Below, in pieces: positions 4,752 to 38,393 of a stretch of 64,000 bases of DNA. The stretch covers positions 286,502,001 to 286,566,000 of the forward strand of contig OZ024742.1 of the NCBI GenBank assembly GCA_964016885.1, in the 5' to 3' direction. The notes under the pieces were generated by a model. It was not told the DNA's origin, did no database searches, and worked only from the letters and a program-made list of their open reading frames with translations. Each line of letters opens with the position of its first letter. Position 1 is the first letter of the stretch. This stretch comes from Eledone cirrhosa. Taxonomy: Eukaryota. The position numbers and the translations under genes were made by a program.

Positions 4752-7700
4752 AACACCATCTACACTACCGACAACACTACCACCACCACTAACACCATCT
4801 ACACTACCAACAACACTACCACCACCACTAACACCATCTACACTACCAACAACACTACCACCACCACTAACACCATCTACACTACCGACAACACTACCAC
4901 CACCACTAACACCATCTACACTACCAACAACACTACCACCACCACTAACACCATCTACACTACCAACAACACTACCAGCACCACTAACACCATCTACACT
5001 ACCAACAACACTACCACCACCACTAACACCATCTACACCACCAACAACACTACCACCACCACTAACACCATCTACACTACCAACAACACTACCACCACCA
5101 CTAACACCATCTACACCACCAACAACACTACCACCACCACTAACACCATCTACACTACCAACAACACTACCACCACCACTAACACCATCTACACCACCAA
5201 CAACACTACCACCACCACTAACACCATCTACACTACCAACAACACTACCACCACCACTAACACCATCTACACTACCAACAACACTACCACCACCACTAAC
5301 ACCATCTACACCACCAACAACACTACCACCACCACTAACACCATCTACACTACCGACAACACTACCACCACCACTAACACCATCTACACCACCAACAACA
5401 CTACCACCACCACTAACACCATCTACACTACCAACAACACTACCACCACCATTAACACCATCTACACCACCAACAACACTACCACCACCACTAACACCAT
5501 CTACACTACCAACAACACTACCACCACCACTAACACCATCTACACTACCAACAACACTACCACCACCACTAACACCATCTACACTACCAACAACACTACC
5601 ACCACCACTAACACCATCTACACTACCACCACCACTAACACCATCTACACTACCGACAACACTACCACCACCACTAACACCATCTACACTACCATCAACA
5701 CTACCACCACCACTAACACCATCTACACTACCGACAACACTACCACCACCACTAACACCATCTACACCACCAACAACACTAACACCACCACTAACACCAT
5801 CTACACTACCAACAACACTACCACCACCACTAACACCATCTACACTACCAACAACACTACCACCACCACTAACACCATCTACACTACCAACAACACTACC
5901 ACCACCACTAACACCATCTACACTACCAACAACACTACCACCACCACTAACACCATCTACACTACCGACAACACTACCACCACCACTAACACCATCTACA
6001 CTACCAACAACACTACCACCACCACTAACACCATCTACACTACCGACAACACTACCACCACCACTAACACCATCTACACCACCAACAACACTAACACCAC
6101 CACTAACACCATCTACACTACCGACAACACTACCACCACCACTAACACCATCTACACCACCAACAACACTAACACCACCACTAACACCATCTACACTACC
6201 AACAAGACTACCACCACCACTAACACCATCTACACTACCAACAACACTACCACCACCACTAACACCATCTACACCACCAACAACACTACCACCACCACTA
6301 ACACCATCTACACCACCAACAACACTACCGCCACCACTAACACCATCTACACTACCAACAACACTACCACCACCACTAACACCATCTACACTACCAACAA
6401 CACTACCACCACCACTAACACCATCTACACTACCAACAATACTACCACCACCACTAACACCATCTACACCACCAACAACACTACCACCACCACTAACACC
6501 ATCTACACTACCAACAACACTACCACCACCACTAACACCATCTACACCACCAACAACACTACCACCACCACTAACACCATCTACACTACCAACAACACTA
6601 CCACCACCACTAACACCATCTACACCACCAACAACACTACCACCACCACTAACACCATCTACACTACCAACAACACTACCACCACCACTAACACCATCTA
6701 CACTACCAACAACACTACCACCACCACTAACACCATCTACACTACCAACAACACTACCACCACCACTAACACCATCTACACTACCAACAACACTACCACC
6801 ACCACTAACACCATCTACACTACCACCACCACTAACACCATCTACACTACCAACAACACTACCACCACCACTAACACCATCTACACTACCAACAACACTA
6901 CCACCACCACTAACACCATCTACACTACCACCACCACTAACACCATCTACACTACCGACAACACTACCACCACCACTAACACCATCTACACTACCAACAA
7001 CACTACCACCACCACTAACACCATCTACACTACCGACAACACTACCACCACCACTAACACCATCTATACCACCAACAACACTACCACCACCACTAACACC
7101 ATCTACACTACCAACAACACTACCACCACCACTAACACCATCTACACTACCAACAACACTACCACCACCACTAACACCATCTACACTACCAACAACACTA
7201 CCACCACCACTAACACCATCTACACTACCAACAACACTACCACCACCACTAACACCATCTACACTACCAACAACACTACCACCCCCACTAACACCATCTA
7301 CACTACCAACAACACTACCACCACCACTAACACCATCTACACTACCAACAACACTACCACCACCACTAACACCATCTACACTACCACCACCACTGACACC
7401 ATCTACACTACCGACAACACTACCACCACCACTAACACCATCTACACTACCAACAACACTACCACCACCACTAACACCATCTACACCACCAACAACACTA
7501 CCACCACCACTAACACCATCTACACCACCAACAACACTACCACCACCACTAACACCATCTACACTACCAACAACACTACCACCACCACTAACACCATCTA
7601 CACTACCAACAACACTACCAGCACCACTAACACCATCTACACTACCAACAACACTACCACCACCACTAACACCATCTACACTACCAACAACACTACCACC

Positions 7701-8740
7701 ACCACTAACACCATCTACACTACCGACAACACTACCACCACCAGTAACACCATCTACACTACCAACAACACTACCACCACCACTAACACCATCTACACTA
7801 CCAACAACACTACCACCACCACTAACACCATCTACACCACCAACAACACTACCACCACCACTAACACCATCTACACCACCAACAACACTACCACCACCAC
7901 TAACACCATCTACACCACCAACAACACTACCACCACCACTAACACCATCTACACTACCGACACACCACTAACACCATCTACACCACCAACAACACTACCA
8001 CCACCACTAACACCATCTACACTACCAACAACACTACCACCACCACTAACACCATCTACACTACCAACAACACTACCACCACCACTAACACCATCTACAC
8101 TACCAACAATACTACCACCACCACTAACACCATCTACACCACCAACAACACTACCACCACCACTAACACCATCTACACCACCAACAACACTACCACCACC
8201 ACTAACACCATCTACACTACCAACAACACTACCACCACCACTAACACCATCTACACTACCGACAACACTACCACCACCACTAACACCATCTACACCACCA
8301 ACAACACTACCACCACCACTAACACCATCTACACCACCAACAACACTACCACCACCACTAACACCATCTACACTACCAACAACACTACCACCACCACTAA
8401 CACCATCTACACTACCAACAACACTACCACCACCACTAACACCATCTACACTACCAACAACACTACCACCACCACTAACACCATCTACACTACCAACAAC
8501 ACTACCACCACCACTAACACCATCTACACTACCAACAACACTACCACCACCACTAACACCATCTACACTACCAACAACACTACCACCACCACTAACACCA
8601 TCTACACTACCAACAACACTACCACCACCACTAACACCATCTACACTACCAACAACACTACCACCACCACTAACACCATCTACACTACCAACAACACTAC
8701 CACCACCACTAACACCATCTACACTACCAACAACACTACC
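4752..8740 (+). repeat. 39-bp minisatellite (AACACCATCTACACTACCAACAACACTACCACCACCACT), roughly 100 copies
   Basis: Highly homogeneous tandem unit; it produces the 1374-aa NTIYTTNNTTTTT ORF. Confidence 0.97.
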
Positions 8741-9169
8741 ACATCAACACTGCCACCACCATCACCAACAACAACACTACCACCAACACCAACTCTACCA
8801 ACAAAACAAACACTAGCACCACCATCGCTACCATCGCCACACCACCAGTACCACCAACATCACAATCAACAGCAGTAGCTACTACACACGCACACATACG
8901 CGCGCACATACACACAAACGCATACATAGGCGTGCGCGCGCGCGCACACACACACGCATACGTGTTTCCACTATCGCCATTACCTATACAATCTCCCCCA
9001 CCCCGGTACCAGCCGTACCACCGCTTCAACAACACTGTAATCATCAGTCCCACCAATAGCAACATCAGTACCCGCCACACACATAAAGTTTCTTCCTCCT
9101 CCCCACATCCCCACCATTACCACGGATAAAGTTCCTTTCCCCAGTCAATAAAAGTTCTTCCACCCGAGT

Positions 9170-17862: not shown

Positions 17863-17898
17863 TCTTCTGATGAAGGACTAGCGTCCGAAACGTTAAGA
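17863..17898 (+). ncRNA. Minimal PLE-type hammerhead motif
   Basis: TCTT-CTGATGA-A-GGAC-TAGC-GTCC-GAAA-CG-TT-AAGA, in a ~140-bp island between (TA)n runs. Confidence 0.8.
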
Positions 17899-19394: not shown

Positions 19395-20217
19395 TCCTGG
19401 TGGCAAGGTTGTAAAAGAAAAGAAATTGTCATCCCTTGAATCGCAAGAATGTTTTGCAAATTTTGAAGGTGCCAGCTATCGCAGCCATTTGTAGACTATG
19501 AATTAGGGAGCTGCGCTCTTTGTCCGCAAATCCAAGTTCAGTCATACTTTGGTCCAAGCGGGTTGGTATATAACCCGTAGCTCCAATAATGATGGGTATG
19601 AAGCTAAAGGTGTATCTTGGATACTGGATTTGTAAACTCCTCATCAATGATCCGTAGATGTCCTCCTTCTCCTGTATTTTTCTGACAACGTCTACATCAA
19701 GTGGGCAGCTGATTTCCACAACAGAACACGTTTTCAATGTGTGGTCCCAAACAACAATATCAGGCCGGTTGTGCTTTAATTTAGTGGCAGTTTTTATTTT
19801 CAGGTTCCACCAGTATTCTTTAGTGCCATCTGTCTCAATATATTCTTCCTCGTTTGTTGTTAATTTTGTTTTCCGGAGTGCGTTCCAGATGGTTTTAGCT
19901 ATCCCATCGTGTCTCATGGGGAGGTATAGCGAGATGACATTCTTTCGCAGCTGGCAACAATGTGACTTACATCCTCGATCTTTGTTTTACATAGCCTACA
20001 TTTATTGTCAGCTGATGGCCCTCCCCTTTTGTGCAGCAGATATTTGGTAGGGAGTTCTTGTACCTGTATTGCATAGAGATATCCCTCAAGGTGTGATGTC
20101 ATAAACTTGTCGGAACTCCATGCCAGGCTTTTTGAGTGGTTTATCTCCTCTATGGTCTGTGTTTTACGTCTCATGTATCCATGCACAACTTTTTCTGTAA
20201 ATTGGTCAATCGTTTTG
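19395..20217 (-). mobile_element. 3' fragment of an R4/Dong-like LINE (CCHC plus restriction-like endonuclease)
   Basis: CRLCKTKIEDVSHIVASC, RHD, HNRPDIVVWD, VEISCPLD, IPIIIGATG; frameshift near 19915. Confidence 0.85.
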
Positions 20218-36264: not shown

Positions 36265-36357
36265 ACAAGTAAGACCCCGACGGCTGAGCTCAAGCCGTTT
36301 CGACGGCTAATTCTTTGTGCGTTATGGTCCACCTGGTTCCTTACCACAGTTCCTTCG

Positions 36358-36358
<1 letters not shown>
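36260..36358. mobile_element. Family B element (HHR 3' half, internally inverted)
   Basis: gaccccgacggctgagctcaagccgtttcgac followed by the family tail in opposite orientation; (TA)n on both sides. Confidence 0.7.
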
Positions 36359-36428
<70 letters not shown>

Positions 36429-36430
<2 letters not shown>

Positions 36431-36863
36431 AGGAAGTTATAGTTCACTTGAAGCATTGTGTAATGAGGTATAAACGTTTGTATATGTATAATAAAGCCAA
36501 AACAATGCAGGTATGGACATAGAATAAAGAATGCAAATGCAAAAGATATTGTTGACAATTAGTCTTTAATCTTAGATTTATTTAAATGTCCTTAATTTTC
36601 GAGATAATATCTCTTCTTCGGAGGGAAGTAAAGCAGTTAAACCAGTGTCCTAAATAGCGTGCCAAGTCATGACTTGGCAAGCTATATAGAACACTGGTTT
36701 AACTGCTTTACTTCCCTCCGAAGAAGAGATATTATCTCGAAAATTAAGGACATTTAAATAAATCTAAGATTAAAGACTAATTGTCAACAATATCTTTTGC
36801 ATTTGCATTCTTTATTCTATGTCCATACCTGCATTGTTTTGGCTTTATTATACATATACAAAC

Positions 36864-36865
<2 letters not shown>
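36429..36865. mobile_element. Family A element: 392-bp spacerless palindrome (36474-36865) with an HHR-like motif on each arm
   Basis: Centre GCCAAGTCA|TGACTTGGC at 36669/36670. CCT-CCGAAGA-A-GAGAT-ATT-ATCTC-GAAA-AT-TA-AGG at 36715-36749 (+), mirrored at 36590-36624 (-). Confidence 0.8.
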
Positions 36866-36921
<56 letters not shown>

Positions 36922-36938
36922 AATGTATATATATATAT

Positions 36939-36986
<48 letters not shown>

Positions 36987-36988
<2 letters not shown>

Positions 36989-37135
36989 CGAAGGAAGTGT
37001 GGTAAGGAGCCACGTGGACCATAACGCACCAGATTACGCGATACTTAGGGTAGTAAAGTAGGTAATATGAATTTTAGTTCGGATCTAGCTGTCGAAACGA
37101 CAGGAGCTCAGCCGTCGGGGCCTGACTCTTTTCTT
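36987..37135. mobile_element. Family B element
   Basis: Tail in reverse orientation, then GTC-GAAA-CGAC-AGGAGCTCA-GCCG-TC-GGGG. Confidence 0.7.
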
Positions 37136-37270
<135 letters not shown>

Positions 37271-37340
37271 GATATATATATATATGCATATATATATATA
37301 TATAAATATATATGCATATATATATATATATAAATATATA

Positions 37341-37404
<64 letters not shown>

Positions 37405-37410
37405 TATATG

Positions 37411-37441
<31 letters not shown>

Positions 37442-37527
37442 AAAAAATTGAACAGGGACAGAACAGAGAGGCAGTACGACAAATGTTTATTAGATTCACG
37501 CTCAGGAGAGTGGGGGGTAGGTGGAGG

Positions 37528-37559
37528 ACGACGTTTCGGGCATAAGCCCTTCTTCAGGT
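37528..37559 (-). ncRNA. Minimal hammerhead motif (downstream copy)
   Basis: AC-CTGAAGA-A-GGGC-TTAT-GCCC-GAAA-CG-TC-GT; helix I only 2 bp. Confidence 0.72.
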
Positions 37560-38172
37560 AAGAGTTCAAAAGGTGTGTAGGGGAGTGGTGGAGAGACATA
37601 TAGCGAAAGGAAACGGTGCGAATGAAAAATTAACAAATAAAGACAAAAATATAATAAATAATAAATAAAAATAAGGCATGATCAAAATACAAGGAATGAG
37701 AACATTTAAAAATAAAGGCATGATCAAAATCAGAAAAACGTAGGGAGGGAGTAAACACCGGAAAATTAAAGACAAAAAATCATAAAGGTAATAACACAGG
37801 CGATCGTGAACAAAAATTCATAGAAATATCATAAAGGTAATGACACAGGCGATCGTGAACAAAAAATCATGGAATACAATTGTAGGAACACAGGCAAAGA
37901 ATCATATACGGAAAAAAAGGGGGGTACGGTAACAAAATCAAACAGAGGTAATGCGTGGAAGGAAAGATAAAGTGTGGGAAGGTGTGTAAAGTTCGGAGAC
38001 AGGTCACGGCGGATTAGATCGGGGTTGAGCCGGTTGTTAAGTGAGTTCCAAGGATGGAGGCCGTGTGAGCGTGTGTTTTGTATAATAAAAAATTGAACAG
38101 GGACAGAACAGAGAGGCAGTACGACAAATGTTTATTAGATTCACGCTCAGGAGAGTGGGGGGTAGGTGGAGG

Positions 38173-38204
38173 ACGACGTTTCGGGCATAAGCCCTTCTTC
38201 AGGT
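38173..38204 (-). ncRNA. Minimal hammerhead motif (upstream copy)
   Basis: Identical to 37528-37559. Confidence 0.72.
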
Positions 38205-38298
38205 AAGAGTTCAAAAGGTGTGTAGGGGAGTGGTGGAGAGACATATAGCGAAAGGAAACGGTGCGAATATATATATATATATATATCATATATATATA

Positions 38299-38329
<31 letters not shown>

Positions 38330-38341
38330 CATATATATATA

Positions 38342-38393
<52 letters not shown>

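Follow-up and report, generated by a model that had tools for sequence, protein, structure and literature searches.

The window analysed here, 64,000 nt from the 3.0-Gb, microsatellite-rich genome of Eledone cirrhosa, contains two direct repeats with a hammerhead ribozyme motif in each. The question is whether these repeats bound a retrozyme unit, an ordinary partial tandem of a Penelope-like element (PLE), or a unit of another kind. The repeats (37442-37623 and 38087-38268) are 182 nt long, 100% identical and 645 nt apart, which confirms the sequence-only reading of this DNA, where near-identical repeats of about 185 bp had been described. When the poly-T/TTATA end is counted, each repeat is 188 nt long, with a single T difference. 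The (TA)n tracts reported for the two outer flanks were also found, at 37136-37438 and 38267-38389.

Each repeat carries on the minus strand the motif CUGAAGA-A-GGGC-UUAU-GCCC-GAAACGUC, starting at 38202 and 37557; in other words, the two identical hammerheads proposed before are present, one per repeat. The full motif is that of a minimal type I hammerhead, AC-CUGAAGA-A-GGGC-UUAU-GCCC-GAAACGUC^GU, with the core CUGANGA...GAAA...UH. Helix I (AC/GU) is only 2 bp, as had been noted; helix II (GGGC/GCCC) is 4 bp, and a palindromic ACGU replaces helix III. The upstream hammerhead occupies 38173-38204 and the downstream one 37528-37559, and minus-strand cuts are predicted after 38175 (between 38175 and 38174) and after 37530 (between 37530 and 37529). 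These minimal ribozymes would need pairing of their ACGU palindromes, and both cuts together are spaced to free exactly 645 nt, a predicted minus-strand RNA spanning 37530-38174. With N7 free, the 28-nt motif finds 4,074 exact matches genome-wide, against none for its reversed control; it is therefore not a chance occurrence. No hammerhead family was seen among the 150 listed of 230 Rfam rows. Two further minimal hammerhead-like motifs in the window, at 17867 (plus strand) and 33173 (minus strand), have a 4-bp helix I and GUU at the cut position; they belong to another family, without similarity to the PLE described below.

The parent of the unit was found by a DNA search of the genome, in which 38 of 1,404 candidates were scored. 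The recovered copies match over the first 541 nt and then diverge; when extended, they proved to be elements whose pseudo-LTRs (pLTRs) lie 4,705-4,784 nt apart, that is, a PLE of about 4.7 kb. The natural open frames of this parent contain DKG, LDIKSLY, MGTRMG, YIDD, CTRCSATYVG and an LQTHTPPGLN end, with GIY-YIG-type motifs among them. This corresponds to the single ORF of EN+ PLEs, with a reverse transcriptase (RT) and, at the C terminus, a GIY-YIG endonuclease (EN), in which the motifs are clear and the Pfam scores weak, both under the cut-off (RVT_1, E 1e-4 to 3e-4; GIY-YIG, E 0.05-0.07). The RT-EN linker of copy L037, CSRPRCNTC (C-X4-CxxC), has the form CX2-5CxxC of the Neptune clade, which is common to Nematis. 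Judged by the linker criterion of PMC8557442 alone, the parent is an EN+ PLE of the Neptune/Nematis type. As far as the account in that paper goes, Neptune and Nematis elements share with the parent the single RT-EN ORF, this linker, the hammerhead-bearing pLTRs, heavy 5' truncation and microsatellite targeting, whereas the copy in the window differs from them in the absence of the ORF. The 5' pLTRs of 39 full-length copies range from 0 to more than 1,470 nt, as expected of a partial tandem with variable 5' truncation, and that of the window copy is 188 nt. The 3' ends of the family fall at one fixed point, which runs into (TA)n at 69 of 72 loci.

The insert in the window is 834 nt long, or 1.29 units, and reads on the minus strand as pLTR, 5'UTR piece, 3'UTR piece and pLTR; we call such copies minis. 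On its 5' side, the (TA)n target microsatellite (38267-38389) shares an AT microhomology with the truncated 5' end. The 5' pLTR (38081-38268) corresponds to the last 188 nt of the PLE unit (e4552-4739), is 5'-truncated and is 100% identical to the natural copy L034. It contains the upstream hammerhead and an AATAAA at 38131-38136. The first 350 nt of the parent 5'UTR follow at 37731-38080, with 346 of 349 aligned positions identical to the full-length copy L032; this piece contains two 49-nt repeats (37775-37872) and ends 114 nt before the parent start codon. At 37730/37731 it is joined to the last 296 nt of the parent, comprising the 3'UTR and the 3' pLTR (37435-37730; 291 of 292 aligned positions identical to L032), in which the downstream hammerhead and a second AATAAA (37486-37491) are located. 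The 3' part stops at the fixed 3' end of the family, ...TTATTATA, and merges with the (TA)n target at 37136-37438. The junction is a blunt G|A joint that has no microhomology and occurs once in the genome. Compared with L032, 4,061 nt are missing at this point, including the whole RT-EN ORF; tblastn in the window gave no match, and the RT and GIY-YIG ORF is absent from the mini. Overall the mini is 99% identical to full-length copies. It is thus a real, young, non-autonomous PLE derivative, without an ORF and with two intact hammerheads.

This structure settles several points of the sequence-only reading. Its derivation of the unit from a PLE was right. Its view of the inner segment as the GIY-YIG end of an ordinary partial tandem has to be given up, because a 5'UTR is fused to a 3'UTR and the ORF is gone. 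The peptide ILGTHLTTG, followed after a frameshift by LN, can indeed be read in the letters; however, the stretch concerned (38029-38055, minus strand) is non-coding and lies at the start of the 5'UTR. As a match to the true endonuclease end of this element, LQTHTPPGLN, it scored no better than chance, 533 of 1,000 shuffles being equally high. Of 39 full-length copies, only 2 have the spelling seen in the window, and the stretch is often broken by single-base indels. Splicing was considered for the loss of the ORF and rejected: the 5' break is followed by GT, but the closest AG stands 3 nt short of the 3' break, and the junctions of sibling copies are not of the GT-AG type. No RNA run was listed among the sequencing runs, and no contig bridging the junction of the mini was found in four public runs from at most two samples, a gap that is uninformative.

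Copies of this kind are frequent in the family. The motif at the start of the 5'UTR has 355 matches in the genome, mostly in one array on C8. All 87 rows on C1-C3 formed a discovery set of 80 loci, which comprised 39 full-length copies, 33 minis and 8 others. Among the matches listed from C4 onward, 51 loci formed a validation set, from which the array and the reference copy were excluded; it gave 29 minis, 21 long copies and 1 other, "long" meaning that the ORF start follows, with full length unchecked. Minis thus make up 62 of 131 sampled loci, and about half of the family copies that keep the 5'UTR start are minis. The census excludes the C8 array and five minis from the first DNA search, as well as L067, a segmental duplicate of L066. 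These last two loci (C1, 211.9 and 212.4 Mb), which are 480 kb apart, share one mini and have flanks that are nearly identical; they represent a segmental or assembly duplicate. Unit sizes of the minis range from 211 to 1,248 nt, and 20 of the 62 have two intact hammerhead cores. Nearly all junctions are distinct; the exceptions are two 14-mers that recur at unlinked loci, so that a few minis may share a master. Unrelated minis (L092-L096) are clustered within 570 kb at C2, 288.53-289.10 Mb, with one head-to-head inverted pair among them, and this region is a possible insertion hot spot.

The way in which minis arise was deduced from this class, because the window copy taken alone is non-discriminating: at 188 nt, its upstream repeat falls short of the 296 nt of its 3' part, a relation also found in 17 of 39 full-length copies. 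A deletion in the DNA would not alter the upstream pLTR. In long copies, the upstream pLTR is often longer than the piece that minis keep after the junction. If minis were deleted long copies, the upstream repeat should therefore enter parent sequence past the junction in many of them. It does so in 0 of 33 discovery minis (21.6 expected) and 0 of 29 validation minis (17.3 expected), that is, in 0 of 62 against about 39 expected. In addition, uniform deletions of more than 1 kb would leave a unit of at most 1,100 nt in only 8% of cases. Ten of the 62 minis instead contain their own junction twice or more, and some of them begin inside the 5'UTR. Since the long upstream copies re-cross their own junction, a short template seems to have been read more than once round. 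We infer from these counts that minis arise by the RT running round a short pLTR-spanning RNA, probably via end-to-end jumps.

The junctions themselves are consistent with such jumps. They were called from hand-set cuts in the discovery set and by a split-alignment caller in the validation set, and three unresolved discovery junctions and two wide validation ones are excluded from the dinucleotide counts. Microhomology at the junctions is at the chance level (mean 1.03 vs 0.94). The dinucleotide T|A is enriched, in 19 of 33 discovery junctions and in 10 of 27 validation junctions (p=0.003), whereas the G|A junction of the window copy lies outside this group. According to PMC8857657, the R2 RT first adds a non-templated base, which pairs with the 3' end of the acceptor, and then jumps to the new template; a similar clamp by a non-templated A would yield a T|A bias. 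A rule of self-complementary junction dinucleotides, which held for 27 of 33 discovery junctions but only 11 of 27 validation junctions (p=0.18), was dropped. Four of the 62 minis, against 0.9 expected (p=0.013), start at most 2 nt from their own junction point; the start coincides with the hammerhead cut in two of the four, and two of the four start at TATG beside a TA run. This is modest evidence for a linear template. The lengths kept on either side of the RT start are correlated in both sets (Spearman 0.67 and 0.61), a pattern that two-sided trimming of protein-protected RNA might produce. A hot spot of junction starts at AACTC was considered as a physical 5' end of the RNA and rejected, as no sharp 5'-end peak was seen there among solo copies (32 loci, hand tally).

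Insertion of the window copy probably proceeded as follows. The parent endonuclease would nick the (TA)n target, and the parent RT would begin at the fixed ...UUAUUAUA site, which is internal to the RNA, and copy 296 nt to the RNA 5' end. It would then jump without homology to the 3' end of the same RNA, 350 nt into the 5'UTR, and continue past the start site to add a further 188 nt. With a single minimal hammerhead, a short RNA would lack a pairing partner in cis and would not be cut. The 834-nt insert is accordingly best described, with good though not full confidence, as an ORF-less copy of a (TA)n-targeting PLE that took this form on insertion, when a short one-pLTR RNA was copied.

A related but unlikely explanation, which still deserves some weight, is that the host (e.g. 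through RtcB) ligated a parent RNA fragment into a covalently closed circle, which served as the short template and around which the RT rolled 1.3 times. A ligated circle accounts equally well for the identical junctions copied at least twice and needs no microhomology; PMC4209133 proposes a circular template for PLEs, and PMC7229834 describes circularisation of retrozyme RNA by RtcB in vitro, as far as these accounts go. However, a circle gives no reason for synthesis to stop at the junction point, yet four minis do so. The cut-site copies described below carry T runs or A tails, as if from a free end, and ligation by the ribozyme cannot have closed the four minis whose hammerhead was lost at the junction (L081, L087, L142 and L160). 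Later loss of the ORF from an inserted full-length copy, by DNA deletion or repair, is compatible with the window copy taken alone. Microhomology-mediated deletions are described as disabling PLEs in a rotifer (PMC3846280, in the part that concerns them), and older full-length copies of the present family carry internal gaps of 0.3-0.6 kb. The absence of long upstream repeats from all 62 minis, the clustering of unit sizes at 211-1,248 nt and the lack of microhomology at the window junction make this explanation very improbable, and L041, L083 and L151 both start inside the 5'UTR and repeat the junction.

Membership of an established family of non-LTR retrozymes, spreading through its own 645-nt circle, is slightly less probable still. 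The two intact hammerheads one unit apart, the missing ORF and the 20 minis with two intact cores would all fit such a family, and a bioRxiv preprint (10.64898/2026.07.22.740005) proposes, in the portion relevant here, that retrozymes are non-autonomous PLE derivatives. Nevertheless, the window junction was found once in the genome, which means that the unit does not belong to a spreading retrozyme family; that of the sibling L050 has no match outside its own locus, and for the C8 sibling, with 199 junction matches, the first 100 all fall within one array. The 99% identity to full-length copies likewise leaves no separate lineage. The claim of an established retrozyme unit is therefore unsupported. 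Collapse of a full-length element during assembly hardly comes into consideration: a collapse would fall within the identical repeats and leave a solo pLTR, whereas the junction seen here joins 5'UTR to 3'UTR without homology. Moreover, 62 such structures exist, and the junction of the C8 sibling is present in contigs of a public run at a depth of about 1,000-1,300 (joint 37646-37876; one sample, possibly the source of the assembly). Synthesis of the mini as such from a short RNA remains the preferred explanation.

The fixed RT start also allows the activity of the hammerhead to be judged from genomic copies. It lies 94 nt downstream of the cut, so cleaved RNA should give 94-nt copies. In the first 100 of 352 matches, tallied by hand, 36 loci had a 5' end near the cut; 17 of these began exactly at the cut, 5 at most 7 nt upstream and 14 at most 5 nt downstream. 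The excess at the cut is significant against both a uniform distribution (p=4e-12) and the downstream positions (p=1e-6), and no single position of a more upstream control stretch received more than 6 of 32 ends (hand tally). Genome-wide, 53 copies (two of which are a local duplicate) have their 5' end exactly at the cut, as against 3 at a GTC of the same letters 3 nt upstream. A T precedes the G in 45 of the 53, often with an extra T. All 20 cut-site copies fetched were solos of 94-96 nt; such solos, which lie in (TA)n and have the hammerhead cut and the fixed 3' end as their exact limits, are found at L176-L195. Two cut-site copies, at L177 (549-890) and L178 (690-802), follow other sequence, in one case an ORF fragment ending in a short T/A run (a run of A) and in the other roughly 17 A; these joints are likely to be jumps of the RT onto tailed RNA ends. 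Two mini junctions coincide with the cut, and none is located downstream of it. No long copy starts exactly at the cut among the discovery copies listed, and the peak consists of solos and two minis.

These 5' ends are a strong but indirect sign that the hammerhead is likely to cut in living cells despite its 2-bp helix I. In tandem parent transcripts it would probably cut and leave 94-nt copies that start at the cut. The peak may alternatively be due to pausing of the RT at the folded ribozyme; a pause at the folded dimer, however, would be expected at least one base off the cut. In a folding model, the dimer in cis was unfavourable, with a helix III pairing of 0.0004, a helix I pairing of 0 and an energy of +18 kcal/mol. 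Among 39 copies, shared variants fall in 0 of 14 core columns and N7 varies in 19; conservation of the core relative to its flanks is not significant (Fisher p=0.19). As 4,074 copies are intact through the cut site, most templates seem to have been uncut or rejoined. If it is transcribed, the 834-nt mini could release the predicted 645-nt RNA; its junction being matched once, it has no daughters in the assembly.

The ribozyme has close counterparts in other PLEs. The hammerhead variant of Drosophila virilis, as described in PMC4209133, has the same core, an extra base before helix II, a palindromic helix III, a 2-bp helix I and a need for dimers. The same account gives low in vitro activity for PLE minimal hammerheads and, as far as it goes, no in vivo evidence; that of the anole PLE (PMC11167929) mentions, in the part concerned, no reads ending at the cut, and cutting that needed protein. 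In contrast to both, genomic 5' ends in the Eledone family pile up exactly at the cut. The anole Poseidon PLE resembles this family in having an RT start inside the RNA, downstream of the hammerhead, and an AT-rich target. According to the same source, the start of Poseidon is in the ORF and lacks homology to the cut DNA, whereas the single fixed start found here precedes the 5'UTR and, with its terminal TTATA, matches the (TA)n target.

Like metazoan non-LTR retrozymes, as these are described in PMC7229834, the window unit is non-coding, a few hundred nucleotides long and derived from a PLE, with a type I hammerhead in each repeat one unit apart, both with intact cores; tandem arrays are shared with them through the C8 sibling. 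It differs from them in its single-copy junction, which shows no multi-copy spread of its own, and in its 2-bp minimal ribozyme, the canonical type having a helix I of about 6 bp and loop-loop contacts. The unit is thus built like a newborn retrozyme, outside any spreading retrozyme family. The preprint mentioned above links retrozymes to pLTRs by similarity, proposes local expansion of terminal repeats and reports, in the part at issue, that 1 of 9 dimers was cleaved. Here, by comparison, both UTR arms and the exact parent were traced, and birth appears to take place during reverse transcription. R2 SIDEs (PMC3414825) and Chlamys MRC1 (PMC8557442) likewise keep a ribozyme or terminal repeat, have lost the ORF and form head-to-tail copies, and template jumps of the RT are known in vivo for R2 (PMC3414825). 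As presented there, however, these are old or amplified families, whereas minis arise repeatedly as one-offs, with some 60 distinct junctions in the sample. The literature search found no report of cut-site solos or of recurrent one-off minis, although supplements of the preprint may list similar derivatives.

The C8 sibling (L043, L044 and L121; G000:C8:31392570-31480141), grown from a single mini of the family, is a tandem array of about 210 units of 416 nt, about 87.6 kb in all, with an intact hammerhead in each unit and 199 junction matches. The array begins within the 5'UTR and has (TA)n at its end; sequence variants reappear in blocks along it, as would follow from unequal crossing-over. 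This array is a candidate hammerhead satellite or retrozyme. Tentatively, and with rather less than even confidence, a wider role may be proposed: PLEs would constantly spin off hammerhead mini-units through the internal RT start and end-to-end jumps, and the non-LTR retrozymes and hammerhead satellites of animals would originate in this way. In that case, the 645-nt unit would be a newborn retrozyme that excises itself in vivo, and the C8 array a sibling turned satellite. The window locus is an ordinary by-product, and the interest lies in the class of minis. The family leaves three footprints in DNA, namely the fixed internal RT start, the pile of 5' ends at the cut site, and short units copied more than once round; no earlier description of these turned up in the literature searched. 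Jointly, they provide a testable model for the formation of pLTR tandems and the birth of ORF-less hammerhead repeats, and the same counts can be applied to any long-read genome with a young PLE.

Some other features of the window should be mentioned. In the region 36290-37045, a near-perfect 201-nt inverted repeat without a spacer (36469-36870) is nested within (TA)n runs and within another inverted pair, whose arms are about 60 nt. Two minus-strand open frames, at 19429-19986 and 778-1806, look like endonuclease and RT pieces of non-LTR retrotransposons. A 39-nt minisatellite of 105 copies with a strong strand skew occupies 4752-8793.
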